DNA of 64,000 nucleotides, taken from Eledone cirrhosa. Taxonomy: Eukaryota. Under the pieces are notes generated by a model. That model saw only the letters and a list, made by a program, of their open reading frames with translations. It had not been told where the DNA came from and searched no databases. The translations under genes were made by a program, and so were the position numbers. This document shows, one piece after another, positions 4,033 through 55,575 of the stretch (positions are counted from its first letter, which is position 1; every line of letters begins with the position of its first letter). Where the stretch lies: assembly GCA_964016885.1 (NCBI GenBank), contig OZ024743.1:351168001-351232000 (forward strand), written 5' to 3'.

Positions 4033-4034
<2 letters not shown>

Positions 4035-8733: not shown

Positions 8734-8737
8734 AATG

Positions 8738-8785
<48 letters not shown>

Positions 8786-12441: not shown

Positions 12442-12475
12442 GTTGAAAAGGAGTGGAAAAGATGGGAAAGACCAC

Positions 12476-14460: not shown

Positions 14461-14669
14461 TTTTTTTTCAAAGAAATTTTTGGATAATAATAAAAGTTAA
14501 AATTTTGGGCACAAGGCCCCAATCTTTTTGGGTGTCCTTTTCGGAAAACAATGTATGTGTGCTTATAAACAGTTAACAATAAAATTTTCCATAAATGGCA
14601 ATTTTTAACAAACGGAAATAACAAACCTTTGCGGAGCTCACGATAATACGATTTCCTACGTAGGTCGCC

Positions 14670-14717: not shown

Positions 14718-14719
<2 letters not shown>

Positions 14720-17700: not shown

Positions 17701-20621
17701 CAAATGTGTGGTCTGTGTTGTTGACTACTATAAATTGTGGACAACCTACACTAGCCTTATCTGTTTCCCTACAGAATACCCTATCTAAATACGATCTGGA
17801 TGACCCGATGCGGTTTGCCCATGTCCACATTGACACATTCGGATAATCCAGTCAATACCTGTCAGACAGTTCAACAGGTTGTTGAGGCTTTTACACCCTC
17901 CTCCTCTGTCTACTAACCCCACATAATCTCAGTGGGCATATAAGATACCGTTCCAGTCGCCCATTAACACTAAAGAGCGGGACGGTCCAAGAAAGGTCTC
18001 TAGACGTCTGAAGAAATCTGGCCGTCCTGCCCCAGTTGGGGCGTAGACGGTACTAGCTTGGAAGCATTGCCATCGCTGCCGGTCACCTCCAGCACCACCG
18101 ACATTCCTTCTGGGTCCAGGTAGATGGCCCGTATGGTGAGACCCAAGCCTCTCCAAAAAAGCACAGCAACTCCCCCCCCCCTCTCCCGGACGGCTGGGAG
18201 ATGCGTATACATCGTAGCCGCCGAAGATCGGTGCAAAGGCTCGCGCTTCGGAGATTCTGGTCTCGCTGATGGCCACCACATCTACGTTTAGTGACCTGAG
18301 GTCGTTGTGCAGGTGACCCTGCTTCCAAGATGACCCCAGACCACGTACATTTATACTGCCTATTCTAAGTACGGCCATGCTGTGTGAGGAACGGGGTAAG
18401 TGAGAAAGGATCACTTACTTTGACCGTGTGGGGAAGGGACAGTAGAACCGTCCCTTCGGCTGGTGATGGGTGTCTCCAAGACGATATATTTGTATATTCT
18501 CTTAGAGAGTGACCCCTGAAATCCCCAACTGCGTTGGTGAATTTTTGTTTTAATTGTGTGTAATCTTCGAGTTCGATTTCCACAATGTTAATATCTTTTG
18601 GTAATTTCTTGGTGTTGGTGGGGTGTGGTAATTTACATCTGAAATATCTGTGTGCTGTTTTATATGTTCCACTAGTCCTTGGTGTGCAATGTTTATGGTT
18701 GTGTACTTTGGGGAGGGAGGGGTGGTTTTGTTGCTGTTTTCTTGTTGTTGCTGTTATGTGTGTGTGCTTTGTTGTGTTTGCGATGTTGCTGTTTGTGGTG
18801 ATGCTGGTGGTGGTGGTGTGGTTGTTGTTGGTAGTGATGCTTGTGGTAGTGATGGTGGTGGCGTTGCTGAAAGTCACCTTGCAGCCTTTACCCTTCTTTG
18901 TTTGTCCTCGCTTTTGGAGGGCAAAGCTAAGTGGTTCTTTCGTTTTTGTTTTTTGTGGCAGACCTTTTGCCACTTCACTCCCGCCTCATACTCCATGTCG
19001 GATTCCGTGGCATCTGGGAGGGGTATGTGCTCCATGGCTGTTGGTGGTGGTAGTATAGCACTCTCCGGCGATTTTGTTGCTGGTGCAGCTACTGCAAATG
19101 TAGCTACTGGTGTTTCCGCCACTGATGCTGTTGCTTTAGTTGTCCGTGGCCTTGGTATGGGTGCCACGGACGTTGCCCTCCTACTCACCGTGGAAGGGTC
19201 TTCTGCCTCTGTTGGCTGCCCTGCTCTTGGTAGCAGGGGATCAGGCGTTGGAAGGAGGGCGGGGGGGGGGACTCTTCTTGTTTGTCTTCTGCGGGCAAAA
19301 GGCCCTGAGGTGACCCTTTTGCCCACAGAGATAACTTTTGGGCGCCTTCCTTCCACGCGTATAGGGAGTTGGAGTCCTTCCTCGAGGTCTATGATATCTG
19401 GGATAGCCTCGATACACTCCTGGTCAGTTTGTATTAGCATTTGCATGCCTATACCTGACCAATTCTCTCTTCTCATTCTCTGTATTTGCAGTATGGAAGT
19501 CCTGTCCTCGATTCCAGCAAGGACAGACGCGGCCAGCCAAGGTATAGGCATGTGCGGCGGGACCTGGGTCACTTTGACCCTCACAATTTTCTGCCCGCAG
19601 TAGGAGGGCACCAAGACTATCTCCTCACTCTTTAGGGTTTCCAAAGAATGAGACTTCGCCTCTTGGGGGTGGCGAAAAGTACGTCTACTGTGGCATACAT
19701 TTTACCTCGGGTGATGTGGGTTTTGCGCGCCCAGACGCACCCCAAGGCCTTTTGGATTTTAGCCTCCGTGGCTCTCTCCACCCGATGTGACATTTTGCTT
19801 ACAGTGCGGTAAGTCACCGTCCGTAGCAGCTGGTCCTTGAAAAAATCGGGTGGATGTTTCAGGGAAACTCTATTGTCATTTCTTGTCACCATGGCCCCTG
19901 CGACTGCCATCTCTTCCTCCGTGACTAGCACTTTTTCTATATTTTGGGCCACACCTGCGAAAGAAATGGCCCCTTTTTCAGCGGCCTCACCATTATTGCT
20001 GCCGATACTGCTGCTACTGGTCTTGTTGTTGGTGCTGTTGATACTGCTACAAACGGTATTGTTGCTGTTATCACTGTTGTAGTTGGTTCTGTTTTTGTTG
20101 CCACCGTTGTTGCTGTTCTCGGAGCAATTTGTATTGTTGCTGTTGGTGTTGTCGTTGTTTATTTTCTTGTTAGTGGTTTTAATATCATTATTGCATTTGT
20201 TGTCATTTGTTTCTGTTGTCTGTATTTTGGTTGTCGCTGTTATTGTTGTAGTTGGTGTGGTAATTCTTTTTAAAATAGTGTTCTCAGTGTTGTTGTCATT
20301 GCTGTCTTTGTTCACATTGTTTGTGGTGGTGTTAGTTGTATCAATTTCTGTAACCATAATCCCAACTTTTACGCCGTTGTCACGCGACAGGAGACATATT
20401 GCTGGGGGGCGTGGCTAAGCCATGTGATGTTTTTTATAATTTTTAAAAGTAAAATGTTCAAATATTTGGGCCAAGAGGCCCAAATATTATACTTTCCCCC
20501 TCACAGGGCAAAGTCCAAGGGCTTATATCCCTTACACAACAAGAAAAGTTTAACAACAAATAATTATAACGGTAAATAAAGCGACTTACTGGGAGCGAGC
20601 AAAAGGACGTCCGATCAGACC
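14718..20621 (-). mobile_element. Full-length but decayed Tx1 element, copy B, in (ATT)n
   Basis: ORF1 pieces 19632..20357, 18874..19644 and 18365..18973. ORF2 pieces from 18378 down to ~15023 are homologous to copy A but carry many frameshifts. (AAT)n at both ends. Confidence 0.9.
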
Positions 20622-24086: not shown

Positions 24087-24393
24087 GTGTGTGTGTGTGT
24101 ATATATATATACATGTATATACTGGGGAGGGGGTATATGTGTGTGTGTTTGTGTCTATCACGACTAGTTGTGATGTGGTGCCATATATATAGAATGTTAA
24201 CAACAAATTGAAATAAGGGATAATGTTCGTCGTTGGATAAGTCACATTAGTAGCCACCATATATATATATATAGTAATAATGGTTTCTTATATAGGCACA
24301 AGGCCAGCAATTTTGGGGAAGGGGAAATTTGCGTGACTGGGGAAGGGGAAAGTCGATTAAATCGAACCCAGTGCGTGAGTGGTACTTTATTTC

Positions 24394-25137
<744 letters not shown>

Positions 25138-27499: not shown

Positions 27500-27584
27500 A
27501 AGACGATGGGCAGGGTTTGTAATAACAAAATATGATCTGGAATAAACAGAGTTGCCCTATCGTATGGAATATAATGTAAATATA

Positions 27585-27772
27585 ATTGTTTATACTTTTG
27601 ACACAAGGCCAGTAATTACCCAGTACATTACTGGTACTTTATCTTATCGACCCCGTAAGGATGAAAGGCAAAGTTAACCTCGGCGGGATTTGAACTCAGA
27701 TCGTAAAGAGACGTAACTATGCTGCAAAGCATGGCGTCCGACTCTCTACCGATACTGCCAATCCACCGCCCC
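27585..27772 (-). mobile_element. SINE copy
   Basis: Reverse complement of the SINE consensus. Confidence 0.85.
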
Positions 27773-27948
27773 TGTAAATATAATGGGAATATAACTGAAT
27801 AGAAAGGTAGTTATATAAATTGATTGATTGATTGGTTGATTGATTGACTGACTCACTGACTCACTGACAAGCATACAAACAGACAGACATACAGACAGGC
27901 AGACATACAGACATACAGACATACAGACATACAGATAGACATATAGGC

Positions 27949-27984
<36 letters not shown>

Positions 27985-28198
27985 TTCTTTATTTACCATA
28001 AAGGCATAAAAAGAAGGGACAAATACAAAGGGGGAGTTTACATATAATCGAGTAAAAAGGGTGTAACATGAAAATAATCGAAAATAACCTCAAAAGGGAG
28101 GGGACGTGATGGGGGTTGCACACACCCCCGAAAAAGTGTGCAATCCTTTGCCCGGGGAGCACATGGAGAAGGTGTTCCCCTCTCCTTTACTTCTTTAC

Positions 28199-31100
28199 CT
28201 ACAGGATGGTATACAGAGAAGGCCCATTTACACGAGCCATTCTCGCCACTATCACCCACCTTTCATAAAACTGCCTGTGGCCAAGCACCTCTCTCTCCAT
28301 TCTTATCCTTCTTCCGAAGTGATATCGGAAGAAGTAGACCAGACTATGGCCAGAGAGGAAGTTGCCTGACCTCAGACCTTTCAATCGTGTCCACCAAACA
28401 ACCTCTTTCAACATGGCTATTACGCACAGAAAAACCGCCTTTGCTTCCTTTGTGAAGAGGGGAGGCGGTTTGATTGTCATCACGGACTCGGCGGTCAATT
28501 TAATCGGCGCCACCCGCGACAGCAGTTGTTCGGCGTAGCCCCACAGATCAGCCACGCCCGGACATTGCACCAATGCGTGCGCCACGGTTTCTTCGTGACG
28601 CACGCATCTAGGGCAAATCTTTTTTGAGGGATCCCTGCCCGGGCGCCCGTGTCTGTAGAGCCTCTCTCGAACGGGTAGAGCCCCTCGGTAGCACTGCCAG
28701 GCCAGTGACTTCTGGAAGTTGTCCATTGGTCCTGGGCCGAAAGTCCTACCGAACAGGCTGGCCAGTTCGTCTTCTTCCATGTCCAGCGACTCTCCAAGGG
28801 TGTCATCGCCCCTGCTAGCCACCAGCCCTCTATAGAATGATGAGGTGGATTCTCCACCGATGGCCCGGCCCGCTTGCCAGAGAGCCCTGAGCGCCTGAGC
28901 ACACTCAGTGTGCCAGTCTCCCAGTTTTCCGGATCTTTGCTTGACCCAGGACTGTAGCTCGGTGAGTGAGACGAGTCTCGGAAAGGCTCGTTTCACGAAC
29001 GGAGCCCACACCGGTTGACCAGTGAGGAATACCTGTAGGTGCCGTAGCCTTAATGCGTGCCTACGCATCATCAACCACGGCATCCCCAGCCCTCCTTTCG
29101 AAGGTTGTTGGCAGCAGATGGATCTTCTCACCATAGGAGGACGCTTCTTCCAAAGAAATTGGAAGAGCATGCGTTCCATGGTGGTGAGTGTTTCCTTAGG
29201 GCAAGGCACGACAGTCAGGCGGTAGTAAGTGACGGACGCTATGTAAATGTTCGCCACCTCCGCCCGGCCTTTTAGGGACAGCTTACACTTGGCCCATTTC
29301 TGGGTTAGTGCAAACACCTTGTTCGTAACCTCGTTCCAGTTCTTTTCCACCTGGAGGTCCGGTCCAAACCAGACCCCAAGCAACTTTACCGGGCCCTCCG
29401 TCCAGTGTCCGACGACACCGTCAGGAGGCATCGGTTTGCCTCTCCACGTTCCGAGTTGCAGCCCGATGGATTTTTCCCGGTTCAGTTTCGCTCCTGACAA
29501 CCTTTCGTACTCCTCCAGTAAGGTACCGATCGCCTCGATCTCCGAGTCGGTTGATACCATTACTGTTACGTCATCGGCGTAGGCCGACACCGCTTTGCTC
29601 AATCCTGGTTCCAGGGGGATACCCTGCAACAACTCCAACTTCCTCAGTAAAGGCTCGAGAGTCAATACGTACAGAAGGGAGGAGAGAGGGCACCCCTGTC
29701 GAATGGATCGTGTGATTTCGAACGGCTTCGAAAGGTAGCCGTTCACCTTGATCCTAGAACAGATGTGGTTGCTATGTAGGGCAGTGATCCAGCCTCTGAA
29801 AACAGGACCGAACCCAGCCGCCGCTAGCACCGCATCCAGGTAACCATGGTCGACCCTATCGAAGGCCTTAGACTGATCCAAGTTGATCAGGGCCCCACCG
29901 AAGCCGGGTTTGTTGCCAACCCTCTCTATGATGTATCGCATGAGGTGGAGGTTATCGTGAATGGACCTGGATGGGATAGCACATGTCTGCGCATCTCCCA
30001 CCAGGCCACCCACGACAAGCGCCAACCTCTTTGCTAACACCTTGGCCAAAATCTTTAACTCTGTGTTTAGCAGGGTTATGGGCCGAAAATTATTTATACT
30101 ATCCCCCTTGTTCTCGTCCTTCCTCACCAGCGTGACTACGCCCTTGGCTACAGAACAAGGAATTCTCCCGTTCTGCTGCCAATTGCAGTAGACCGCTTCG
30201 AGGAGTTCGGAGAAGAAGACCGGCATTGCTAAATAAAGTTCGTAAGGTATACCATCGAGACCTGGAGATTTGCGTCTGCTGCATTGGCTCAGCGCATCTC
30301 CGATCTCATCAGCCGAGATTGGTCCCTCGCAGGACTCTGCCTCTTTGTTCGAGAGACGCGGCAGGCCGTCGAGGTATGGACCGAAATCCACGCCCCGGCC
30401 CGGACCCTCGCCTCCCCCGAACAATCGGGCAAAGTGCTTTTGAAAGGCCTCGCACATCTGCTTAGGCTCCCGGATCACTCGTCCATCTTCGTCTTGCAAC
30501 GACCGGATGGTGGATCGATTTCCACTTTTAGCTTCTGTCACGCGGGCCCATCCAACGGCTTTGGCCCCCTCATTACCTAGAGCACGTATTTTACTTCGAA
30601 TGACGCAGCCTTCATGCTTTGCATCGAAAAACTGGTTCAAGGCCGTCCTCGATGCCAGCACTCTGGCCACATCTTCGCTCTTGATTGCCTCTTCTAATTT
30701 ACCTGTTAATTCTTTCTCGTTTCTATTCCTATTGGCAGCTAACATCTTGCTATAACTTATTGATTCTGTTCTAATCTCTCTTTTGAGAGATGCCCACCAT
30801 CGGTTGTTGACGATTGCACCCGTCAACCTCTCCTTAACTAATCTGCTAATCCGGTTTCTGTAAGTCTCTTTTGCCGGTAAAGACAAATTAAGTTTCCAGT
30901 AACCGGGACCCTGTCTATGTGTTTTCTCGAGATTGACCACGCAGGTCACTAATTTGTGATCCGTGTAGCCAACCGTGCGCATTTCTGGACAGCTTAATAT
31001 GTCCCTATCCTTACTTCTAACTAAGAATCTATCTAAGTACGATCTAGATTGACCACTGTGGTTTCTCCAAGTCCAGGTAGGCACAGTTGGAAAATCTAGT

Positions 31101-31636
31101 CGATATCTATCGACCAAGTTAAAACGGTCGAGTAACCCCTTGAGGCTGTTACACCCCCCTCTATTAGGACATGCTCCTGCATAGTCCCAACGTGCATCTA
31201 GGATGTCATTCCAATCCCCCGCTAGAAGCAGGGAACGCGACGTTCCCAGAAAAGTCTCCAAACGCTGGAAGAAGTCGGGCCGTTCAGCTCCGAAAGGGGA
31301 GTAGACGGCGACCAGTCTCAAGGCCGCACTTTCACTACTGCCAACGTCTAGCACCAACAAACGACCCTCCGGGTCCGAGTGCACAACCTGTACGGCAAGA
31401 CCCAGGTGTTTTTGCAGCAGCACGACAACCCCACCCCCACCTCCAGGTTGACAGAGAGATGCATGCACCTCAAAGTCATCGAAGGTGGGGGCCAGCTGCC
31501 GCATGACGCTGATTCGAGTCTCACAGATAACCATTACATTTATACTACATGACCTGAGGTCATTTAGAAGCTTTGCTTGCTTCCAAGTTGAGCCCAGGCC
31601 ACGTGCATTCAAACATCCTACTCTTAACACATCCAT
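28199..31636 (-). CDS. Tx1 ORF2 protein, 1145 aa: APE endonuclease, reverse transcriptase, CCHC domain
   Basis: Uninterrupted ORF. Motifs: CLNARGL, CETR, GDWN, SYLDRF, TDH, DQSKAFDRV, RQGCPLS, YADD, CPRC..ETVAHALVQC. Confidence 0.92.
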   Translation of the reverse strand: MDVLRVGCLNARGLGSTWKQAKLLNDLRSCSINVMVICETRISVMRQLAPTFDDFEVHASLCQPGGGGGVVVLLQKHLGLAVQVVHSDPEGRLLVLDVGSSESAALRLVAVYSPFGAERPDFFQRLETFLGTSRSLLLAGDWNDILDARWDYAGACPNRGGCNSLKGLLDRFNLVDRYRLDFPTVPTWTWRNHSGQSRSYLDRFLVRSKDRDILSCPEMRTVGYTDHKLVTCVVNLEKTHRQGPGYWKLNLSLPAKETYRNRISRLVKERLTGAIVNNRWWASLKREIRTESISYSKMLAANRNRNEKELTGKLEEAIKSEDVARVLASRTALNQFFDAKHEGCVIRSKIRALGNEGAKAVGWARVTEAKSGNRSTIRSLQDEDGRVIREPKQMCEAFQKHFARLFGGGEGPGRGVDFGPYLDGLPRLSNKEAESCEGPISADEIGDALSQCSRRKSPGLDGIPYELYLAMPVFFSELLEAVYCNWQQNGRIPCSVAKGVVTLVRKDENKGDSINNFRPITLLNTELKILAKVLAKRLALVVGGLVGDAQTCAIPSRSIHDNLHLMRYIIERVGNKPGFGGALINLDQSKAFDRVDHGYLDAVLAAAGFGPVFRGWITALHSNHICSRIKVNGYLSKPFEITRSIRQGCPLSSLLYVLTLEPLLRKLELLQGIPLEPGLSKAVSAYADDVTVMVSTDSEIEAIGTLLEEYERLSGAKLNREKSIGLQLGTWRGKPMPPDGVVGHWTEGPVKLLGVWFGPDLQVEKNWNEVTNKVFALTQKWAKCKLSLKGRAEVANIYIASVTYYRLTVVPCPKETLTTMERMLFQFLWKKRPPMVRRSICCQQPSKGGLGMPWLMMRRHALRLRHLQVFLTGQPVWAPFVKRAFPRLVSLTELQSWVKQRSGKLGDWHTECAQALRALWQAGRAIGGESTSSFYRGLVASRGDDTLGESLDMEEDELASLFGRTFGPGPMDNFQKSLAWQCYRGALPVRERLYRHGRPGRDPSKKICPRCVRHEETVAHALVQCPGVADLWGYAEQLLSRVAPIKLTAESVMTIKPPPLFTKEAKAVFLCVIAMLKEVVWWTRLKGLRSGNFLSGHSLVYFFRYHFGRRIRMEREVLGHRQFYERWVIVARMARVNGPSLYTIL

Positions 31637-31669
31637 GTGGGCGGCAGAGCCAAAGGAGAGTGTAGAGAC

Positions 31670-33551
31670 CTACCTTTCCGCTTCCCGGGGTTCGGGTTGC
31701 ACGACTTCCATGGGGTCGGGGGTGTTGGGTGAAGGGGTGTCTTGTGGTGGTGTGGGGTCGTCGGTGTGTGGTGGGGTTGGGGTGTTTGGAGTTGTGTTGG
31801 GGAGGGGAAGGGGAGGGGGAAAGCTTTTTAGTAGGACGCGGTTTATGGGTTTGACAGAGGGTGGTCCTACGTCCTCCTTAAAATCCTTTTTTAGTTTTTG
31901 GTAGAGGTTCATTGGGATTTTTATTAGTTTTAAATGTGGGTGGTTTTCTGATGAAACAAAGTTTACACCTTCGGTTTGTACCGAAGGATTATTGTATATG
32001 AGTTCATTTAATTTATTATTGTTTCTGTTGATGTAAGTATAGTGTAATGTCTTTTTTTCCGATGGTGTGAGTGTTTCGAAGAGGGGAGGGGCAGGTTTGG
32101 TTTTGTTTGTTGCTGGAGGGGTGTTTTCTGTTTTGTTAGATTGTGTTGCGATTTGGGTGGGGGTTGTTTGTCCTTGTGTGTTTTGCACATGTTTTCTTTT
32201 TTTCCTTTTAATCTGTCTGAAGGACTCCGTTTCTTCCTCCGAATTCGTTGGGTTATCTTCAGTGTTGGAGGGAAGAGGTATGTTTGCTGGTAATGTTTCC
32301 GTGTTGGTTTTCTTTGTGGGGGAGATGGATGTCACTATGTTAGACTGTGTTGTGTGTTGTGTCTGCGGTGGTTGTGTTGTTTTATTGAGTGAGAGGTTGG
32401 GTGGGCCTGTATTTTGTTTTGGGGTAATGTGTTGTGACTGTTTGTGTTGTGGTGGTGTTGTGGTGTTACTGAGGGACGGGTTGGGTGGGACTGAGTTTTG
32501 TTGTTTGTTTATCTGTTGTGGTGGTGGTGGTGGAGCTGGTGTTGGTAGCAGGGTTTTCTTTTTGTTGAGTTGGGGACAAGCGGCCTTCAGGTGCCCTCTG
32601 CCTGCACAGATATGGCAGGACGGCCTTCTCCCCTCCACGCTAATGTTTATATACCCGTGGTCCTCTAATAGGATTCTGTCGGGTATTTGGGCGATGCGTT
32701 CAGGCTTCATTTGTACTACCAGCTCTATACCTGTTCCACTGAACGCATTGCCTGTGGTTTTCCCAATGGAAATCACGTTGTCATTCACTGGATCGATGAA
32801 GCCAGCTATGAGCCAGCAGTAGTCCACATCTGGCATCATTGCATCCAGCCATATGCGTTGAGTTTTTTTCCCCATATAAGATGGATAAAAGGTGAAATTT
32901 TTCGAACGAATCGGTGACAAAGCACATTTTTTTGCCGCCGATTCGTTCTTCATGATAATTGCTAGGCTTCCATACAGTCTGTCTTTTCTTATGAAAGTTG
33001 TTTCATTCAGTACTTCTGCGAGTACTGTTTTGATATCTGCTTGAGAAGGCTGTTCAGGTTTTTTTTGTACTGTTGTTGATGGTCCGAAACTTGACCGTTC
33101 GGCTTTCAATGTCTTTCGTGAATTCTTGAGGCATTTTTACCAATAAAATACCATTCTCACCTTCACTTATGTATTGTTTTGCGTCCGTGATTCTTCGTAC
33201 CACATCTGAAATGTTTTCCGCTATATAAGTCAAAGATTTCTTTGTTTTCTGTGCAAAAGAGATCTTGTCGTCTGCTTTGTTTTCTGATATTATGTTATTT
33301 TCAACTGTTATTTTTTTGTTTGTTGTGTCTTTGTTTGTGTTATTAGTATTGTCATGCAATTTTTCAAATTTTTTTTTTTCGTTGTTTTCGTCATTTAATT
33401 TTTTTTCCTCCGCAGATTCGTCCGTTTTTATTTTCATTTTTCCTTCCTTCTCTATGACGTTAGTTGGGAAGGAAGGGAGGACTAAAGCGTGCGAGCTTAC
33501 AACTCTTACCGCTGTCCCCCCACCACTATTTTCGTTCGCTGCGTTTAACAT
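31670..33551 (-). pseudogene. Tx1 copy D ORF1 (CCHC knuckle), split by one frameshift at an A9 run
   Basis: 33054..33551 and 31670..33109 overlap at the T-run 33059-33067. Knuckle CHICAGRGHLKAAC. The shift may be a sequencing error. Confidence 0.75.
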
Positions 33552-33782
33552 TTCTGTTAGACGATTGAAATTTTTTACACAAAATTTTTTAAAACAGGTT
33601 TTTCACCTCTAGGAGGGGTAAAGATGAGCTGACCCACCGCCTGACAGTTCAGACGGAGGGTCAAGCTACACAATTGTATCAAAATTAAGTTTGAACTCAC
33701 AAAATTTCCTCAATAAATTTGAACAAAACTTCTGTGCGAAGTGAATGACATCCACACTGTAGAACAGACGACAGCTAGATTA

Positions 33783-33813
<31 letters not shown>

Positions 33814-33849
33814 TATTTCTAGATAGATAGATAGATAGATAGATAGATA

Positions 33850-34410
33850 TGTTTCTTTTATTTGCCACTAGGGCATCAAAAGTGGGACAAGTACAAAGGG
33901 GGAGTTTACACAAAAAGGCGTCCTCAATAAGGAGGAGGCAATAACAAAATATAAAAATAAAATAAGATATAACAAAAAATAAAATTTATAACAAAATCCT
34001 CAATAGAGAGGAGGCGCCTTGGAGGGTCGCACACACCCCCGAAAAACGTGTGCAACCCTTCTCCTCAGGAGCACAGAGAAGGGGTGCTCCCTTGGTCTTT
34101 CATCTTCCTCACCTATAGTCTGATGTAGAGTGAAGGCCCATTCACACGGGCCATTCTCGCCACTTTCACCCATCTTTCATAGAAACGGCTGGGGTGCAGC
34201 ACCTCTCTCTCCATCCTGATCCTTCTTCCGAAATGATATCGGAAGAAACGGACCAGTTGTTGGCCAGAGAGAAAGGTGCCTGACCTCAGTCCTTTCAGAC
34301 GCGTCCACCATACAACCTCTTTCGCCATGGCTATTACGCACAGAAACACCGCCTCTGCTTCATCTTTGAAGGGGGGAGGCGGCTTGATCATTACAATAGA
34401 CTCGGTGGTC
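33850..34410 (-). mobile_element. 5'-truncated Tx1 copy E in (GATA)n
   Basis: ORF2 C-terminus (34113..34391) plus 3'UTR. (GATA)n on both sides. Confidence 0.9.
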
Positions 34411-34439
34411 AGATAGATAGATAGATAGATAGATAGATA

Positions 34440-37400
34440 AATTTCTATTTATTTGCCACGAGGTCACAAAAGAAGGGGACATTTACACAGTGGGGGAGTT
34501 TACATAAATCGAGTAAAGAAAAAAGGAATAACAATAATAATATAACAATAAAAAGTCCTCAAAAGGGAGGGGGCGTGTTGGGGATTGCACATACCCCCGA
34601 AAAGTGTGCAACTCTTTTCGCGGGGGAAGCCCAGAGAGGAGGCGCTCCCTCTTTCCTCTTCACTTCTTCACCTATAGAACAATGTAGAGAGAAGGCCCAT
34701 TTACACGGGCCATTCTCGCTTCTTTCACCCACCTTTCATAAAACTGTCTGGGACCAAGCACTTCTCTCTCCATCCTGATTCTTCTTCCGAAGTGGTATCG
34801 GAAGAAGTAAACCAGGTGATGGCCGGAGAGAAAGTCACCCGACCTCAGACCTTTCAGGCGCGTCCACCACACAACCTCTTTCATCATGGCTATTACGCAC
34901 AGAAAGACCGCCTCTGCTTCATTTCTGAAGGGAGGAGGCGGCTTGATGTTCACCACAGACTCGGCGGTTAATCGAATCGGCGCCACACGCGACAGCAGTC
35001 GTTCGACGTAGCCCCACAGATCGGCAACGCCCGGGCAGTGTACCAGTGCATGCGCAACGGTTTCCTCGTCGCGCACGCATCTGGGACAGATCTTTTTCGC
35101 GGGATCCCTGCCCGGGCGCCCGTGCCTGTAGAGCTTTTCTCGAACGGGCAGAGCCCCCCGGTAACACTGCCAGGCTAGGGACCTCTGGAAGTTGTCCATG
35201 GGTCCCGGGCCGAAAGTTCTACCGAACAGGCTGGCCAGTTCGTCCTCCTCCATGCCTAGCGACTCTCCAAGGGTGTCGTCGCCCCTGCTAGCCACCAACC
35301 CTCTATAGAATGTCGAGGTGGATTCTCCACTTACAGTCGGGTCCGCTTGCCAGATAGCCGTGAGCGCCTGGACACACTCAGTGTGCCAGTTGCCCAGTTT
35401 TCTCGGTCTTTGCTTCACCCAGGATTGCAGTTCGGTGAGCGAGACGAGCTGTGGGAAGGCTCGTCTCACAAACGGGGCCCACACCGGCTGACCGTTGAGG
35501 AATACCTGTAGATGCCGTAGCCTCAATGCGTGCCTACGCATCAACAGCCACGGCATACCCAGCCCTCCTTTCGAAGGGTGCTGGCAGCAGATGGATCTCC
35601 TCACCATGGGAGGCCGCTTCTTCCAGAGGAACTGGAAGAGCATGCGTTCCATGATGGTGAGCTTTTCCTTGGGGCAAGGCACGACGGTCAGGCGGTAGTA
35701 GATGACGGACGCTATGTAAGCGTTCGTCACCTCCGCCCGACCTTTCAGTGATAGTTTGCACTTGGCCCACTTCTGGGTCAGCGCAAACACCCTGCTCGTC
35801 ACCTCGCCCCAATTCTTCTCCACCTGGAGGTCCGGTCCGAACCAGACCCCGAGCAGCTTCACCGGGCCCTCCGTCCACCGCCCGACGACACCGTCTAACG
35901 GCATCGGTTTGCCCCTCCACGTTCCGAGTTGCAAACCGACTGACTTGTCCTGGTTCAGCTTAGCCCCCGTCAGCCTTTCGTATTCCTCGAGTAGGGTGGC
36001 GATCGCCCCGATTTCCGAGGCGTCCGCCACCATTACTGTTACGTCGTCGGCATAGGCCGAGACCGCTTTGTGCAATCCCGGTTCCAGGGGTATGCCCCGC
36101 AGCAACTCCAACTTCCGCAGCAGTGGCTCGAGAGTCAATACGTACAGAAGGGAGGAGAGGTGGCACCCCTGTCTGATGGATCGGGTGATTTGAAACGGCT
36201 CCGAGAGGTAGCCGTTTACTTTAATCCTAGAGTAGATGTTGTCACTGTGCATGGCAGAAATCCAGCCCCTGAAAACGGGTCCGAAGCCCGCCGCCGCTAG
36301 CACCGCATCCAGGTAACCATGGTCGACCCTATCGAACGCCTTAGATTGATCCAAGTTGATCAGGGCCCCACCAAAGCCGGGTTCGTAGCCAACCCTCTCT
36401 ATGATGTATCGCATGAGGTGGAGGTTGTCGTGAATGGACCTGGACGGGATAGCGCATGTCTGCGCGTCTCCCACCAAACCACCCACCACAAGCGCCAACC
36501 TCTTCGCCAACACCTTGGCCAAAATCTGTAACTCTGCATTCAGCAGAGTTATGGGCCTAAAGTTACTTAAGTCGTCCCCCTTGCTCTCGTCCTTCCTCAC
36601 TAGCGTGACCACGCCCTTGGTCACAGAACAGGGAATTCTCCCGTTCTGTTGCCAGTTGCAATAGACAGCCTCGAGGAGTTCGGAGAACAAGACCGGCATA
36701 GCTAAATAAAGTTCGTATGGTAGACCATCGAGACCCGGGGATTTGCGTCTGCTGCATTGGCTGAGCGCTTCCCCGATTTCAGTGGCTGTGATTGGCCTTT
36801 CGCAGCACTCCGCTTCGCCGCTCGAAAGACGCGGTAGACCGTCGAGGTATGGACCGAAGTCCACATCCCCGTCCGGCCCCCCGCCACCTCCGAACAGTCG
36901 AGCAAAGTGCCTTTGAAAGGTCTCGCACATTCGCTCAGGTTCAAGGATCACCCGTCCATCCTGGTCTCGCAAAGACCGAATGGTGGATTTAATCCCACTC
37001 TTGGCTTCTGTCACGCGGGCCCAGCTAACAGCTTTGGTCCCCTCGTTTCCTAAAGCACGTATTTTACTTCGGACAACGCAGCCTTCGTGCTTCGCGTCAA
37101 AGAACTGGCTCAATGCCGTTCTCGTCGCTAACACTCTGGCTACGTCTCCGCTCCTAATCGCCTCTTCTAGTTTATCTGTTAACTCCCTTTCCCTCCTATT
37201 TCTATTCGCCGCTAGTTCCTTACTGTAACCTATCGAACTTACTCTAATCTCTCTCTTTAGAGATATCCACCACCTACTGTTGACGATCGCTCCCGTCAAC
37301 CGCATCTTAACTAAGCTACTAATCCGGTTTCTGTAATCTTTCTTTGTCGGTAAGGACAAGTTCATCTTCCAGTAACCGGGACCTTGTCTATGCGTTCTAT

Positions 37401-40151
37401 CAAGGTTGACCACGCAGGTCACTAATTTGTGATCTGAATAGCCAACCATGATCAGTTCTGGACAACTAAATACGTCCCTATCCTTACTCCTAACCAAAAA
37501 CCTATCTAGGTACGATCTAGATTGTCCACTGCGGTTTGCCCAGGTCCAGGTTGGCGCAGTTGGACAATCTAGTCGAAATCTATCGACCAGGTCGAATCGA
37601 TCGAGTAACCCCTTGAGGCTGCTACACCCCCCTCTATCGGGACATGCCCCTGCATAGTCCCAACGCGCATCTAGGATTCCATTCCAGTCCCCCACTAAAA
37701 GCAGGGAACGCGACGTTCCTAGAAAAGTCTCCAGACGTTGGAAGAAGTCGGCTCTTTCCGCCCCGAAGGGAGCATAAAGACCGACCAGTCTGAAAGCCCC
37801 GCCTTCACCGCCTCCGACGTCCAGCACCAGTAATCGACCCCCCGGGTCCGAGTGAACAATCTGTACGTCGAGAGTCAGACGTTTATCCAGCAGTACGGCA
37901 ACTCCCCCCCCCCCCCCCCGCTTCCGGGTTGACAGAGAGATGCGTGCATCTCAAAGTCATCGAAGGCGGGCGCCAGCTGTCTCACGCTGCTGATCCGACT
38001 CTCGCAAACAACCATCACATCTATACTTTGTGACCTGAGGTCACTTAGAAGCTTTGCTTGCTTCCAAGCTGAGCCCAGGCCACGCGCGTTCAAACAGCCA
38101 ACTCTCAATTGATCTATTTTGGTGTTGAAAGTGAAGAAAGAAAAGCACTTACCTCTCCGGGTTGCGTAATTTCCATGGCATCAGGTGTGTTGGGTGGAGG
38201 GATGTTTTGTGGTGGTGTGGGGGTACACGTGTGTGGTGGGGTTGGGGTATTTGGAGTTGTGTCAGGGAGAGGGGCGGTTATGGGGAAATCTTTCAAGAGG
38301 ACGCGATTCAACGGTTTTAAACAGGGGGGGGCTCACGTCCCGTCTAAATTGTTCTTTTAAGGAACGATAAAGGTCCAGAGGGACCTTTATCATTTTTAAA
38401 TGGGTGAAGTTCTCTGTTGAGATAAAGTTTGGCCCTTCGGTCTGCACCATAGGGTTATTGTTTATTAATTTAACCAGTTTTTTGTTTTCTTTATTTATAT
38501 ATGTGTATTGCAACGTCTTTTTTTGTGATGCTGTCAATGTTTCGGAGAGGGGAGGCGCAGATTTATTTTTGTTTGTTGAGGGTGGGGTGTTTTTGATTGG
38601 AGTTGGTGTTTGTGTGTGGGTTATTTGTGGTGTGCTGGGTGTGTGTTTTCTTTTTTTTCTTTTAACTTGTCTGAAGGCTTCTCCTCCTTCTTCTTCAGAA
38701 GTTGGGGGAAACTCTTCAGCGCTAGGTGGGAGTGACGTGTTGTGTGGTTGTTTTTTTTTTGCGGGAGGGGTAGATTTGTTACTGTTTTTTTTATTATTTG
38801 TTTGGAATGGGTTTTGTGGTGGTGGTGGTAATGTTTGTGTCGTGCTTGTGGTTGGTGATGGTGGTGGTGATGTTTGTGTTGTGGTTGGTGGTGGTGATTT
38901 TTGTGTCGTGCTTGTGTTTGGTGCTGGTGGTGGTGATGTTTGTGTTGTGTTTGTGGTTGGTGGTGTCTGTATTTTGTTTGCTGTGTGTGGTATTAGTGTA
39001 TTTTTGGAGGTGGGTGGTGTTGGTGTACTGTTTGTGGTGGGTGTGGGCAATAGTCCTTTTTGGGGGATACGTTTCGGGCAGTTAGCCTTAACGTGTCCCC
39101 TTTCCATGCATAAATAGCATGCTGGTCTTCTCCCCTCTACAATTATGTCTATTGGGGTAAGGTCATCCAGCCAGATGCGATCCGGGATTTGTGCTATTCT
39201 TTCGGGCCTCATTTGGACTAGTATGTCGAGGCCCATTCCCAGGAACGCATCTCCAGTTGCCTTCCCCATTGACAGCATTGTGTCTTCGCCCATATCAATG
39301 AAGCCAGCAATAGCCCACCAGAAGTCCATTGTGGGCAGCATTGTTTTTACTTTTACTCTCTGTGTTCTTCTACCCATGTAGGAGGGATAGAAGCTATATG
39401 TTGTCGACGAGAGTGGGCTTAGGGAAAGCTTCTCCGCCGTTTCTTTGTCTCTTGTTAGGGCCGAAATGCTGCCATAGAGTCGGTCCTTTCGTATGAAGAG
39501 AATATTCTTCATATAGTCTTTTAGGACTAACTCTATTTCCATTTGGCTGGGCTGTGCTGGCTTTCTTGTCTGGTTCAGTATAGTTCTGTAGAGAACTGTG
39601 TTTTCTACTCTGGCTTTCTTGAATTCTGGGGGGGGAGTTAATGGAAAACATTCCGTTCTCCCCCAAAACAATGTGTTTCTTTGCTTCGGCCAGTTTTTCT
39701 CTGGCGGCAGTTAGGTCAATTGGTGTGTATGTAATGGATTGTTTTGTTTTCTGGGCGAAAGTTGCCCTGTCGTTATTTGTATTATTTTCTGTTTGTTTGT
39801 TTTCTGTTTGCTCATTTTCCTTAACATTTGTTTTTTCATTTTGTTTGTTTGTTTCAATGTCTAATTTTGTTGTAATTATTTTTTGTTCTTCAGACTTGGG
39901 GGGGCGTGGCAGAGCTAATGGCAGACATATCTGCCATCTTTTCCGCCATGCTGCCAAGAAAGAAATTTTTCGGCAAAAATAGATATTTATTTTACCCCCT
40001 AAAAAGGGGGTAAATGCAAAAATGTTTCCCTAAATAACAGGGGTTAGTGTTCCAAATGTGTTGCACTAAAAAATTTATCCGGTACTTACAATAGTAAGGG
40101 TAAATCCCGATGGAATAGCGGAGCCGATGCGAAGCGTGTCTTACTCTATCA
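34440..40151 (-). mobile_element. Full-length Tx1 element, copy F, in (GATA)n
   Basis: (GATA)n at 34411-34439 and 40152-40178. ORF1 pieces 39394..39957, 38262..39671 (CYLCMERGHVKANC) and 38114..38311. Confidence 0.92.
34672..38117 (-). pseudogene. Tx1 copy F ORF2, frameshift at a C-homopolymer (~37903-37919), start codon reads ATA
   Basis: 37875..38108 plus 34672..37827 are colinear with the copy D ORF2. Confidence 0.85.
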
Positions 40152-41084
40152 AGATAGATAGATAGATAGATAGATAGACAGGCAGGCAGGCAGACAGACA
40201 GAACAGATAGATAGTTAGGTAGGTTGGTAGGTAGGTAGGTAGGTAGGTAGGTAGGTAGGTAGGTAGGTAGGTAGGTATGAGGGTGAGAGAAAATGAGAGG
40301 AATTAAGAAAGGTGAGAAAGTATATAAATTGAGAGTGAGAAAAAGGAGAGACCATGTAAAAGAGTGTGGATGAGAGGAAGACGATGTTGGGGAGAAGGTA
40401 GAAGAGGAATAAATGTAGAGTAAGATAGTGTGTGAAGAAAAATGGAGAAGGTGAGAAGGTAAACTAAAAATGTGAATAAGGATAAGAGATGGAAGAGGAG
40501 GAAGGTAAAAGTAGAGTAAAAATATGAAATGTGACAGAAAAGGTTGGGTGGAGAATGGTGTTAGGGAGGGTGAATGAGAAAGGGAAGAAAAGGCGGAGTT
40601 AATGTGTAAGAATGAGGGAACGCAAGGGTGGGTGAGTGAAAGGCTGTATGTTAGAAAGGGAAGGGAGCTGAATAGTGTTTAGTAGGAGAAAAAGTGAGTG
40701 GTGAGTGGTAGAAAGGAAGAGAGAACAAAAATGGGGTCTAGTAGAAGGAAAGAGAGAGAGAGGGATAGTGGGGGGAGAGAGGGGGGAGAGAATGAGAGAA
40801 GAGAGACAGAGAACTCTGCATGACGGGAGAGAGGGGAATGGTGTATGGTAGACGGAAAGAGAGAGAGGAGAAATAATTTACAATAGAAGAGAGAGAGAAA
40901 GAGAGAAGGGGGTAATGGTGAATTGCTTGTTAGAAATTACGAGAAATCAAGGTAGATAGATATATAAAAAGACTACATGTACAAAAAAATTGAAATAAGC
41001 CGCAGTAAATATGGATTGGTTGTAAAGTAGTATAAATAGCAGTAACAACAATAACATCAAACTTAATAATAATAATAATAATGA

Positions 41085-41295
41085 TTTCTGATTTAGGCAC
41101 AAGGACAGCAATTTGGGGGAATGAAAGTCGATTAAATCGGCCCCAGTGCGTTACTGGTACTTTATTTTATCGACCATGTAAGGATGAAGGGCAAAGCTAA
41201 CCTCGGTGGTATTTGAACTCAGAACGTAAAGTGCCGGATTAATTGCCACACGGCATTTTACTCGATTCATTAAGTATTCTGACCATATATCACCC
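41085..41295 (-). mobile_element. Diverged SINE copy
   Basis: Same core and tail as the other SINEs, adjacent to (AAT)n. Confidence 0.7.
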
Positions 41296-41720
41296 TTAAA
41301 CATAACCATAATTAGAACAACAGCTGCAGCAGCAACAATAACATACAGCGCATCTGGAACATTTAAACCTGGCGGAGCCCATCCCTCTCCAGGTGTAGAC
41401 AGAACCGATTTCTCCCAGAGAAATAAAGAGAGAGATGGGACAGAGAAGTAAGAAGATATAAAAGCAGATTCGACCCCAGTATTGAACTGGTACTATATGT
41501 ATCAACCTCGAAATGATGAAAGGCAAAATTGACCTGGGACTTGAACTCATAGCGTAGAGAATCAGTTGAAAGATTGCAAAACCTTCTCTCAGTTGTCATG
41601 GTTTCAGTCTACTGACGCATGGTTGGGGGAGGCCAATTTCTCTACTCCAATCTTGCTACTCTCACTTAAAAATTACTAGAAAGCAGAACATCTAACTATC
41701 TATCTATCTATCTATCTATC

Positions 41721-42611
41721 AGTGGAGACTCCACTTCGACATTCTATAGAGGGTTAGTACTTTACAAGTAGGACGACGTGCTCGGGGAGACTTTAGGCGT
41801 CGAAGACGACGATCTCACCAGTCTGTTCGGTAGGACTTTCCGCCCGGGACCTATGGACAACTTCCAGAGGTCCCTGGCCTAGCAGTGCTACCGAGGAGCT
41901 CTACCCGTTCGAGATAAGATCTACAGGCACGGACGCCCCGGCAGGGATCCTTCCAAGAAGACGTGTCCAAGATGCGAGCAGGACATTGAAACCGTCTTGC
42001 ACGCAATTGTACACTGCCCGGGCGTAAGCGACCTGTGGAATTATGCAGAACAACTGCTGTCGCGTATGGGACAAATCCAGTTGACTGCCGAGTCCATAGT
42101 AAGGATCAAACCGCCAGCCTCTTTCAAAAACGAAAGAGAGGCGGTTTTCCTCTGTACAGTGGCTATGGTGAAAGAGGTTATATGGTGGACGAGATTGAGA
42201 GGACTGAGGGCAGATGCCTTTCTCTCCGGACAATTGATTCCCTTCTTTAAGTATCACTTTAGAAGGAGAATCAGAGCAGAGAGAGAGGCACTGCACCCCA
42301 GTAAATTTACTGAAAGGTGGGTGAATGAAGCGAAAATGGCCCGAGTGATTCGGCCTTCTTTGTTTATAAGCCTGTAGGTTAAAGAAAAGAGCAAAAGGAA
42401 GAAAGGAGCACTTGCACAACACGCTCCTGAAGTTGAGGGTTGTTCTATCGACGGGGTATTAAACAACCCATTTGTGGTGCCTCCCCACTATTGAGGATTT
42501 CGATTGTTATAATTGTTTGTTTCAATATTTTTACACGACTGTATTTAAAATCCCCGGCATGTGTCTTTGTATTGTCCCCTTTTCTTGTGCGCCCTTGTGG
42601 CAAATAAAGAA

Positions 42612-42612
<1 letters not shown>
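41721..42612 (+). mobile_element. 5'-truncated Tx1 copy G in (TATC)n
   Basis: ORF2 C-terminus (GPMDNFQRSLA*QCYRGALPVR, CPRC..HAIVHC) plus 3'UTR. (TATC)n on both sides. Confidence 0.9.
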
Positions 42613-42643
<31 letters not shown>

Positions 42644-43024
42644 GATTCTTTTTTTCAAATACCACTTTGGAAGAAGAATCAGGATGGAGAGAGAGGTGCT
42701 GTACCCCAGCAAGTTTTATGAAAGGTGGGTGAAAGTGGCGAGAATGGCCCGAGTGAATGGGCCTTCTCTCTATATCAGCCTGTAGGTTGAGGAAAAGGAG
42801 GAGGAGAGGAAAGGAGTACAAGCTCTTCGTACTCCTGGAGATGAGGGTTGCACATTTTTTTTCGGGGGTATGTGTTACCCATATAAACTGTCTCCCTCTA
42901 TTGGGGAAAATCGACTAACTTTTAAATTCCATCTGTGATAACATTTTACACGTTTTTATTGTATGTAAACTTCCCCCTTTGTATTTGTCCCCTTCTTTTG
43001 TGCCCCTGTGGCTAATAAAGAAAT
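42644..43024 (+). mobile_element. 5'-truncated Tx1 copy H in (TATC)n
   Basis: FFKYHFGRRIRMEREVL...VNGPSLYISL* plus 3'UTR. (TATC)n on both sides. Confidence 0.9.
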
Positions 43025-44022
43025 ATATCTATCTATCTATCTATCTATCTTTTATTTCTGTTTCTCTTTCTCTTCATCTATCCCATTCGCCTATCTCTTT
43101 CCCTCCACCCTAACTTCAAATCATATTTAAGTATATTGATGGAATATTCAAATTTAATTAAATAAATGAAAATTGTGAATGAGAATGCGGAACCATCACG
43201 AAATTTGGCAACTAAAGATTTGTCTGAGGTTAACCAGTTTTAGATAAAGCTTCGGTCATTTTCACTGTCCTACCAGAAATTATACAAATTTGAGGAAATT
43301 ATGCAAATGTAAGTATAGCACGCATATTTCAATGTTTAATAGATATGATTTAAGTTTTTATTAAAAGATTTGGTGAGCGTGGATACACTGTAGAACGTAT
43401 CCATTGTATAAAGTATTTTCTAAGAAATGTTGAACTAAAAATCAGAGCAAAGAAGGGGGTACACATTTTCAGAAATTTTGAATTAAAATTAAGGTAAAAA
43501 AAGGAGTGCACTTTTTCAGAATTTTTATTGAGCTTAAAAATAGTCATTTCAAATGGCAAGATTGCAAATACGTGTTTATAGAAATTGTTTACAAATAATA
43601 CCTGATATATCGGTAATTGGGGATCTGCGTAATTGAATGCCGTCTGTCTCAAAGGCGAGAAAAGTGGTCAAATAAATTTATAAAGGGATATATAACATTT
43701 GTCATGTTTTGATAACAGTATTATTATAACTGACTATTGTTAGGCTTGAATAATAAGGCGATACTTCCCACGCTGTGAAGCTGTTTGCTATACACATATT
43801 CCTCCATTTGTTGGCATACAATACCCGGTTTGAAAACTAGAAATTAGATACGTAAATAGCACTGACATAATTATACCGCTATATAAATAGTTTTCACTGG
43901 TACTGGTACTGGTAAATTTAAACCGCAAAATATAACGGTGGTTTCTGTAGAGATAAAAATATTTGTGTAAACCTTTTTCAATTAAACATACTTAGCAATT
44001 GAAAAACAAAAAAAAAACACAA

Positions 44023-52544: not shown

Positions 52545-53498
52545 GTATATGTATGTTTGCTTAGGTATAATTATGCGTGTATGTATTTGGGCATGCTGCC
52601 ATTTCTGCCAACGTCTACGTGTCGAAATACATTGATTAAATTACTTATACATTCTATAGAATGTATTATCTCAATTGTGTGTGAAACTGGTGTAGTAAAA
52701 CAATAATTCCAGTGCGGTGCTGGAGAGGTCAGCTGTAATGAAATATTCTGCACACAAATCATTAATTAATCTCAATGTTACTTAAACAAAATAACAACAT
52801 GACAACTTCAGAAAGGAAAACCTTTCAAACAGATGATACAAACGAACATTGATGCAGAATTAATATTATGATGGATTGATAGATTCGATAACCTTACAGG
52901 TATTTATTAAAATGTGTGCCGAATTTAATGAAATTTATAAACCAAGGTTAATTCAAATTAACCCTCTTTTAATCAGGCATTCAAATATATAGTTAAACTT
53001 TTATCATGAATTATCGGAATATTTAATTTTGTTCAATTTGTATGTTTTATTTATCCCCTTTAAAAACAATTGATCGTCAGAACAATATATTAGAACCAAA
53101 ACACTTGTAAACATTTTAGTATGAAGCTTATTACTCTTTTTTTCTCTTAATATATTCTGCTGTCAGCTTTTCTATAAAATTTTAAAAAGAATAAACATTT
53201 TTGAAAGAAAGCATGAATGGTAATTTTGCATGCTAATGCAAGCTATTTTAAAAAAGAAAAAATATTTTCTGCAACGCTAAAAATTACGGCAGCCATATTT
53301 CCTTACAACAATCATATTCGTTTTATTTCTAACCAGAGGACATGATCTTATTAACAGCCAGTGTTTTGTCATATGCTCTGTGTGATATCCTCCACTCGTT
53401 GCCCTTCTGGCAATAAAAGAAAACATCATCATTATCATTATCCATATCCTCATCATCTTCATCATCAACTATTACTATTATTATCATTATTATTATTA

Positions 53499-55575
53499 AG
53501 AGGTCGTCCACAATTCAATGAGTCGACTACACAGACCACAAATGTGTGATTTGTGTGGTCGATCAAGATAAGCTTCATAGACAGAGACCCGGTTACTGAA
53601 AGCTGAACGCGTCGTTCTCGGCGCGCAAAGATTCAAAGACCGGATTAGTGAATTAAATAAGCGGGCGTTGACAGGAGCAATCGTCAATAACAAAGGACTA
53701 TTAGAGTAGAATCGATAACGTTTAGTAACGATAGAGAAAGTTAGAGGAGAGGGAGATCTAGTTAGAAACCTAGAAGAATCACTTGCTAAAGGCAGCAAAT
53801 CCAACGTGCTTGCGGTGATATTGGCCCTCGGCCACTTCTTCAATGATAAGCACAAAGGTTGCCTTGTCAGAGTTAAGGTACGTGCTCTTAGACGCGAGGC
53901 GACAAAAGCCCTTGAATGGGTTCGAGTGGTAAAGGCGAAGTATGGCAACGAAGCCACAATCTGGTCTTTGGCGAACCACGACAGGTGCATTGTGCTTGAT
54001 CCTAAGCAGATGTGCGCGGTTTTTCAGCGACACTTCGCTCAAATGTTCGGCAGTGGTGGTGGGTCGGATCGAGGGATAAACTACAAAGTCTACCTCGATG
54101 GGCTGCCGCGGATTTCGGCGAGGGAAGCAGTGTGTTATGAAAAGCCGATAACAGCAGATGAAATATGGGACGTGATGGCTAACTGCACAATCGCCTAGAT
54201 TGGATAGTCTGCCTTTCGCAAACTTGCCAGATTTGATTCAGCAACATCTTAGGCGACGTTTATGTCAACTGGCAGCAGAACGGCAGAATTCCCAGTTCTG
54301 TGATCCGAGGGATTGTCGCGGCCACTATTCAAAGTTAGAGTGGTTAGAGTGAACGGTCACCTTTCGGAACCGCTCAACATATGCGCTCCGTCTCCTCTTA
54401 TCCTTTTTTTATGTATTGACTCTCGAGCTACTACCACACAAATTAGAGATGTTGAGGGTTATCTCGCGTGAGCTAGGATGTGGGAGATCCATGTCAGTAT
54501 ATGCTGATGACGTCATCCCAATATTGTCGAACACCAAACACATTGAGATGATCGGCACCGCTCTCAGGGAGTACGAAGTGGTAACAAGAGCAAAACTTAA
54601 CCAGGAAAAGTCGAGAAGCCTGCAGTTCGGCATATAGAGAGGCTGGATGGACAGACTGGTTAAATTCCTTGGGGTTTCGTTCGGTCCAGACCTTCAAATA
54701 GACAAACGTGGTGGCCTCTCTCACCCAGAAATGCCCCGAGAGGAAGCTATACTTGAAAGGTCGGGCAGCGGTGGCGAACGTGTACATCGCGTCCATCATC
54801 TACTACCACCTGACCGTTGTGCCTTGTCCTAGTCCATGTCTGACTGCACTGGAACTTCTACTCTTTCGCTTTTTGTGGAAGGGACAGGTTCCATTGGTCA
54901 GGTAGTCCATCTGCTATCAACGCCCGCTCCGTGGAGGATTGGGCATTCCGTGGCCCATGATGCGCAAAAATGGTGATGCGCTCAGGCTACGACATCTCCA
55001 ACTTTTCCTTGATGGTGAACAGGTGTGGTCACCGTTCGCTAGACACATTTTTTTCCCTGCTCGTCTGCTTAACAGAGCTTGAATCCTGGGTCAAGCGGAA
55101 ACCGATAGGGAGCGCTTGGAAACGGGGAAAAAACGACTACGTTCTTGGAGAGACTCTGGACGTTGACGAAAATCAACTAGCCACTTTTTACCTGAGAACT
55201 TTCAGAGATGTACGGAGTGTGACGAAACTATCCTGCACGCACTCATCGAGTTTCTGAGTATTTCTGACCTGTGGGTTTATGTCGAGAACCTGCTGTCGTG
55301 TGTAGGACGGATCCGACTATCAACTGAGTCGATTGTGAAGATCGCCCGACCGTCTTCGTTTAGAGAAGAGCAGGAAGTTTTTATCTGCCTGGTGGCTATA
55401 GCGAAAGAGGCGTTTGAAAGTGTTTAAGACAAGTACTTTTCTATTCGGCGAAGCCCTGATTAACTTTTTCAGGTTTCACTTGAAGAGGAAAATCAGTGTG
55501 CGGAGGGATGGGCTGCCTTGTAACCAATTTGTTCAAAGTTGGGTGAGAGTGGCGAGGATGGTCCGTGGGAATTGG
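53499..55575 (+). mobile_element. Decayed 5'-truncated Tx1 ORF2 fragment (ATT family), copy I
   Basis: KHKGCLVRVKVRALRRE, SVYADDV, KGRAAVANVYIAS, FHLKRKI. Preceded by (ATT)n. Confidence 0.85.

Follow-up and report, generated by a model that had tools for sequence, protein, structure and literature searches.

TATC motifs as insertion sites of an L1-group LINE lineage in Eledone cirrhosa, and an ATT-associated sister clade

Introduction

Several long interspersed nuclear elements (LINEs) with an apurinic/apyrimidinic endonuclease (APE) are described as inserting into microsatellites, with ACAY, AC, TC and TTC as known units, and Dong elements are reported in TAA repeats (PMC3812793). The available descriptions add TG for Togen (PMC4640811) and (TTCC)n or (TTTC)n for crocodilian Tx1 elements of the Tx1-1_Crp group (PMC4494074). 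The way in which APE-type LINEs recognise a target, and come to switch to another, is still debated ground: when the Tx1L hairpin was grafted onto L1, specificity was not transferred in a modular way (PMC1950540). Here we analyse 64,000 nucleotides of the Eledone cirrhosa genome (assembly GCA_964016885.1, contig OZ024743.1, forward-strand positions 351,168,001 to 351,232,000), referred to below as the window and numbered from its first letter. It contains five copies, D to H, of a LINE lineage flanked by TATC repeats, and related copies A, B and I at ATT repeats. A preliminary description of the window had proposed a Tx1 lineage inserting in one orientation into (GATA)n/(TATC)n.

Like this lineage, Kibi on (TC)n and Koshi on (TTC)n of teleosts and the crocodilian Tx1-1_Crp group are APE-type members of the L1 group with microsatellites as targets, and kindred families use similar repeat units. 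In this comparison, made by description, TATC (and the ATT of the sister clade) differs in not being among the units listed for them, and the host, an octopod, differs as well. The best solved relative of the second open reading frame (ORF2) of copy D is human LINE-1 ORF2p (PDB 8UW3, 1VYB). Human L1 and D share a short motif with purines 3' of the presumed nick and a duplication of similar size; the former uses TTTT/AA and poly(A), whereas D uses TC|TATCTAT, lacks poly(A) and has a CCHC knuckle in ORF1. SART1Bm, R1Bm and R2Ol also insert at specific repeats or sequences, although they belong to other clades (PMC7265360, PMC6530143). SART1Bm is reported to require a long poly(A) and a target of three repeats or more (PMC7265360), whereas D inserts at one or two units. 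Finally, Dong (R4 clade) occupies (TAA)n, the same repeat as the ATT clade (PMC3812793), and Dong-like copies share those arrays in the window; Dong differs by its restriction-like endonuclease and its opposite orientation relative to the ATT clade.

In Octopus vulgaris, 13 recently active L1-Tx1 families with 421 insertions have been annotated, plus Dong-R4 (PMC13282606). The accessible text of that annotation mentions neither GATA nor target, and its supplement mentions none of GATA, TATC and target; the D lineage may well be among its L1-Tx1 families. No GATA-targeting family was found in the published literature, with Repbase, Dfam, the Fell 2025 survey (4,464 assemblies, according to PMC13586686), Fujiwara 2015 and the supplement of PMC4494074 lying beyond this search and possibly listing one. 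As a target of this known type of element, TATC is new and well supported, and its value lies in the contrast between the sister clades.

TATC repeats on both sides of the copies

Each of the copies D to H carries six to eight TATC units on its sense strand at both ends, as the preliminary description had it. On the minus strand, the full-length, 5.8-kb copy D (27,982–33,781) ends on (TATC)8 (27,950–27,981), which comprises target and duplication; AATAAA stands 6 bases ahead of the repeat, without poly(A). Between E and D lie two (TATC)7 runs (33,786–33,849, minus strand), separated by a 7-base fragment of an element 3' end (33,814–33,820). Copy E is 5'-truncated (562 bp; 33,850–34,411, minus strand), and its 5' flank is at the same time the (TATC)7 tail of F (34,412–34,439). 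Copy F is full-length (5.7 kb; 34,440–40,152, minus strand), with an ORF2 broken near its start, and has an independent 5' flank of (TATC)6 (40,153–40,176). On the plus strand, another independent (TATC)6 (41,697–41,720) precedes G, a 5'-truncated copy of 894 bp (41,721–42,614) that belongs to an older subfamily and shows about 95% identity to its best genomic matches. The (TATC)7 at 42,615–42,642 is both the tail of G and the 5' flank of H, a 5'-truncated copy of 383 bp (42,643–43,025) that ends on (TATC)6 (43,026–43,049). With nucleotide identities of 82% (D–F), 75–77% (D–E), 74% (D–H), 72% (G–H) and 71% (D–G), the copies are indeed distinct subfamilies. The ATT repeats previously noted at both ends of the full-length copies A (8,785–14,669, minus strand) and B (14,718–20,621, minus strand, older) were also found, as was the one at the 5' end (53,486–53,497) of copy I (53,498–55,590, plus strand), which is decayed and groups with the ATT clade.

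Because these copies stand head to tail, the TATC runs that precede D, E and H at the 5' side belong to E, F and G as their tails. Within the window, the 5' repeats are therefore evidence of a target for F and G only, which is weaker than first claimed. We then turned to the whole 3.0-Gb genome, where exact patterns for the 3' ends gave 1,429 ends of D type and 5,846 of H type. Whether the repeat is a target was examined in two genomic samples, which settle the point. The first consisted of the 40 stretches of highest identity (the query contained four flank bases), 39 of which hold a full-length D. TATCTA lies within 30 bases upstream in all 39 and in reverse orientation in none, and the fixed orientation thus stands. 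The motif is also present in 26 out of 26 full-length D copies not flagged as lying behind a sibling tail, against a background of 1.4% for positions drawn at random from window DNA outside the elements and of 0.8% for B/C loci. The second, unbiased sample was the first 42 D-type ends in position order along contig C1. At their 3' side, TATCTAT comes next in 32 and TAT in 41; at their 5' side, TATCTA was found upstream in 31, and in three more once internal rearrangements were resolved (34/42). In the other families, TATC is upstream of 30/30 F copies and ATT of 30/30 A copies, and 20/20 B copies have ATT-type repeat ends (by eye). A published criterion for microsatellite-specific families, more than 20% of flanks (PMC4494074), is exceeded by D (34/42 at the 5' side, 32/42 at the 3' side) and F (30/30).

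Other targets were considered and rejected. Elements of the Kibi or Koshi type proper would be expected at (TC)n or (TTC)n, and TCTCTCT starts just 1 of the 42 D ends and 2 of 30 H ends. For a separate GACA/TGTC class, TGTCTGTCTG comes next in the tested register (one phase and one 3' end were covered) at only 10 ends genome-wide, against the 1,429 exact D-type and 5,846 exact H-type ends, and nine of these 10 are ordinary subfamily ends by eye. Copy C was a candidate for a Koshi-like TTC family, and its relatives mostly end on ATT where the tail is readable.

Some individual loci (numbered with the prefix L) show unusual arrangements. At L332/L378, a truncated D ends directly on the ATT run ahead of a B-type copy, without 5' motif or duplication, possibly by cross-target insertion. 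One and the same unusual 5' joint is found in two D copies separated by 5.9 kb (L078/L079), and two others, 15 kb apart, have both flanks in common (L379/L380); in each case, repeated insertion in the same register or a later duplication could be the cause.

A short motif and a target-site duplication

Target-site duplications at D copies confirm that the repeat is not only a tail. Their length is 16–21 bp at 29 of 30 duplication-defined empty sites, and 19 or 20 bp at 18. Over these sites, the motif TC|TATCTAT is almost constant: T at −2 in 29, C at −1 in 28, TAT in all 30, C at +4 in 29, T at +5 in 30, A at +6 in 28 and T at +7 in 30. Since one or two TATC units are enough for insertion (L091, L352, L366, L380), the target is a short motif rather than an array. 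The original idea that (GATA)n arrays as such are targeted does not hold as stated: insertions also occur at single TATC units and TA-rich variants, and at two loci (L368 and L382) the duplication contains no TATC. The target is best described as a nine-letter short-motif preference, TC|TATCTAT, found mostly in GATA repeats.

The TC at −2/−1 lies outside the duplication. Eight copies that themselves end in TA or TG are informative here; six have TC at this position, uncopied, and two of these six (L352, L382) lie outside any repeat. This points to recognition by the protein, as RNA pairing cannot explain it. Moreover, duplications that include unique sequence mean that the site predated the insertion.

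The 5' joints are exact in 27/27 A and 33/34 F contexts, and D shows 36 different joints among 66 contexts. In two A copies with short 3' runs (L163, L176), no matching duplication was found. An apparent lack of duplication in F was withdrawn, both informative F copies having a sibling fragment downstream. Transcripts of A and F may have their start within the upstream repeat and could then anneal at the 5' side; if they do, their 5' repeats may be partly borne by the element.

Element type, coding content and age

Copy D contains an open ORF2 of 1145 amino acids (28,199–31,636, minus strand) with an APE endonuclease (residues 1–245; 30,902–31,636, minus strand), a reverse transcriptase (RT) and a zf-RVT domain; the Pfam domains found are Exo_endo_phos, RVT_1 and zf-RVT. 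Its ORF1 (31,670–33,602, minus strand), with a CCHC knuckle, is split by a frameshift in the window copy and open (643 codons from stop to stop) in most near-identical copies. A profile of the D ORF2 and its relatives gave 640 bits with human L1 ORF2p versus 229 bits with R2; on this score, the D–H lineage is an L1-group non-LTR (long terminal repeat) retrotransposon. The structure agrees, with two ORFs, 5' truncations, target-site duplications and no LTRs.

Within the L1 group, the lineage is a probable member of the Tx1 clade. A CCHC zinc knuckle in ORF1 is a feature of Tx1 that is also present in other clades; the pattern C-x2-C-x4-H-x4-C occurs in ORF1 of D, F and A, where Pfam zf-CCHC remains below its cut-off (E 0.019–0.29). 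No named animal Tx1 sequence was among the matches of the protein searches or the cluster look-up, the sole TX1 name being a fungal annotation at 26% identity, and the ESM Atlas matches were unnamed clusters of endonucleases and RTs only. The RT has its closest named relatives in Argonauta hians (67%) and Acanthosepion pharaonis (51%). A Dong/R4 identity was rejected: it requires a restriction-like endonuclease after the RT, and D, F and A have an N-terminal APE domain instead.

The D family is young, judging from its reading frames, since both ORFs are open in many full-length copies: 31/39 in the top-identity sample (ORF2 alone in 34/39) and 6/24 among the full-length copies in position order (ORF2 alone in 8/24). 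In subfamily F, 21 out of 21 copies (L181–L200 and the window copy, at about 38,107–38,112, minus strand) have ATA instead of ATG at the ORF2 start position, across which the ORF1 frame continues; translation of ORF2 may thus be coupled or begin at a non-AUG codon. Contigs near-identical to D (e.g. 345 bases with 1 difference, 369 with 2) also occur in three sequencing runs labelled as three other organisms (X5, X6, X7), and one X6 contig shows two D-like copies connected via GATA-like letters. Close relatives, transfer between species and mixed samples are all possible sources of these contigs.

Two sister clades and their endonucleases

The phylogenies of RT and endonuclease called for by the preliminary description were both built. 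The tree from the RT to the C-terminus included 42 genomic representatives with less than 90% identity and 13 database proteins, decayed copies being read with X at stops. It contains a TATC clade of 26 rows and an ATT clade of 17 rows, with supports of 98 and 95 in the Shimodaira–Hasegawa-like approximate likelihood ratio test (SH-aLRT), joined at 100. The same split appears with the endonuclease only (SH-aLRT 86 and 97). In both trees, TATC and ATT copies are thus sister clades, consistent with one target switch in either direction. The suggested switch between close relatives holds to that extent. At 80 distant metagenome loci (23–42% identity), no run of three TATC or GATA units was found.

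Endonuclease identity is 58% between D and A and 65% between D and G, which has the same target as D. The two peptides that the preliminary description had cited for D and A as the specificity region are both present, and the hairpin it named is the correct loop: residues 188–202 (31,031–31,075, minus strand) align with T192–S202 of human L1, at the same length. This loop is equivalent to the hairpin grafted in earlier work (PMC1950540). Among the four differences between D and A in the loop, only S194 (I in the ATT clade) is clade-diagnostic, and two other loops differ more. The domain has 18 diagnostic positions, eight of them at residues 47–63, including six at 54–63 (31,448–31,477, minus strand; aligned with L1 residues ~58–70), and three at 155–157 (31,166–31,174, minus strand), adjoining the position aligned with L1 R155. 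As S194/I is the sole hairpin diagnostic and more lie elsewhere, the domain is a fair suspect and the hairpin alone a weak one. In two A copies with open ORF2 (L164:3746–4480 and L176:3033–3767), W replaces G beside the diagnostic hairpin I; the window A has G.

How the site may be chosen

The observed parts are the motif, the duplication, the fixed orientation, the absence of poly(A), the domain layout and the two sister clades with TATC and ATT targets. We consider it probable that the L1-group lineage D–H, inserted in one orientation at TC|TATCTAT with duplications of 16–21 bp, has its site chosen by a nick in the GATA strand and then by pairing of a UAUC read-through tail. Target-primed reverse transcription is established for the L1 group. 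Here, the endonuclease would nick 5'-ATAGATA^GA-3' in the GATA strand, and the RNA, whose cleavage and polyadenylation would take place a few units into the downstream repeat, would carry UAUC units able to pair with the freed primer. Reverse transcription would start inside the paired stretch, so that poly(A) would not be copied, and a second nick 16–21 bases further on would produce the duplication. Each insertion would leave target on both sides, from which head-to-tail stacks and short abortive fragments in TATC runs would result. Ten element 3' fragments of 9–47 bases were found inside TATC runs among the loci examined, including that of the window. AATAAA is located 6–8 bases before the repeat in 7/7 copies checked, and no poly(A) remnant was seen by eye at 42 D and 30 H ends. 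For R2Ol, insertion is increased by pairing between read-through RNA and target (PMC6530143). A single change in endonuclease preference, along with a tail derived from the flank, likely separated the two clades.

Several points weigh against this reading. We infer the nick site and the RNA tail from the sequence, and of 18 informative D junctions, 17 lack an additional TATC unit (the exception is L094), so copying of the RNA tail is rarely seen. The site specificity of D is not strict: among the 42 ordered ends, the site is degenerate but cleanly duplicated in 4, another 2 are located within TA/TC runs, and in 2 the 5' side has no motif and no duplication. It is looser in truncated and older copies, with TATC in 11 of 16 H copies whose boundary is in view (two by eye; none in 3, and 2 left unassigned); in the older G, 22 copies with the 5' end in view divide into about 9 with clear TATC, 6 with weak TATC and 7 without it (by eye). 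The 30 empty sites were chosen where the repeat ends within about 26 bases; this selects for short repeats, and such sites indicate the permitted range rather than the typical case. Both trees come from quick, unbootstrapped searches. Finally, diagnostic residues amount to 18/240 in the endonuclease versus 39/905 in the rest of ORF2, and this enrichment is not significant (p = 0.064).

Alternatively, the endonuclease could be loose and near-equal in both clades, with pairing of the read-through tail mainly selecting the site and a switch requiring no more than a newly captured flank. Conservation is highest at +1 to +7, the positions expected to pair with the RNA, the hairpins of some TATC and ATT copies are one residue apart (L259 vs. 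window B), the endonuclease of D is nearly as divergent from that of G as from that of A, and a similar model has been proposed for RTE LINEs (PMC6007223). We nevertheless regard this alternative as unlikely, since the TC at −2/−1 stays conserved beyond the edge of the duplicated stretch that could pair, the trees of endonuclease and RT each divide by target, and among 43 lineage rows, several without a readable tail, there is no protein/tail mismatch between clades.

The reverse extreme, in which the nick alone sets the site, the RNA stops at the element boundary and the 3' repeat is only duplicated target, appears quite improbable, although it accounts for the 17 junctions without an extra unit and for mismatched targets (TATAT, TATCTTT) left unchanged at the 3' side. 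The usual distance from AATAAA to the cleavage site is 10–30 bases, and the 6–8 bases seen in seven copies fall under it; the lack of any visible poly(A) remnant and the extra unit at L094 also speak against this alternative. In its favour, in vitro nicking by the Tx1L endonuclease is almost confined to the target of that element (PMC1950540).

That there is no targeting, TATC being just a tail and the 5' runs a product of tandem duplication, of recombination or of passive survival where repeats are dense, is very improbable: three of the five window copies do sit behind a sibling tail, as do 13/39 D, 14/30 F and 18/30 A copies flagged in the genome, but stack neighbours are different subfamilies (71–82% identical), all unflagged D copies have the motif, and duplications with unique sequence, i.e. 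a pre-existing site, largely refute it.

Other repeats in the window

Two R4/Dong-like LINE copies (4,031–7,990 and 8,012–8,739, plus strand), with RT, CCHC and a restriction-like endonuclease motif (by eye), occupy the same AAT array as A and B in the opposite orientation. An abundant SINE-like (short interspersed nuclear element) repeat of about 200 bases, often ATT-ended and often immediately 5' of B-type copies, is found at 502–715, 1,277–1,890, 3,509–3,683, 24,359–24,536, 27,574–27,784, 41,077–41,236 and 62,414–63,375. An inverted repeat pair of 239 bases with 99.6% identity (60,250–60,488 and 60,686–60,924) is possibly a young DNA transposon.

Implications

The two clades occur in one genome, share 58% endonuclease identity, have open ORF2 on both sides and differ in motif and at 18 diagnostic positions, so that a direct test is possible. 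The TATC/ATT pair is a natural system for studying how LINEs likely choose and switch their landing sites. A more far-reaching proposal, which we hold only tentatively and think doubtful as a whole, is that these sister clades are still active and changed target from or to GATA via a few endonuclease residues outside the hairpin plus a captured RNA tail, and that the lineage is a main builder of GATA microsatellites in this genome. If the switch lies in residues and tail, swaps of these parts would redirect insertion, which would be the first modular retargeting of an APE-type LINE. Likewise, each insertion, down to 9-base fragments, would copy about 19 target bases and thereby make the lineage a main source of such repeats. 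With its thousands of ends, this large and young lineage is relevant to the turnover of microsatellites and to the use of GATA markers in octopods.

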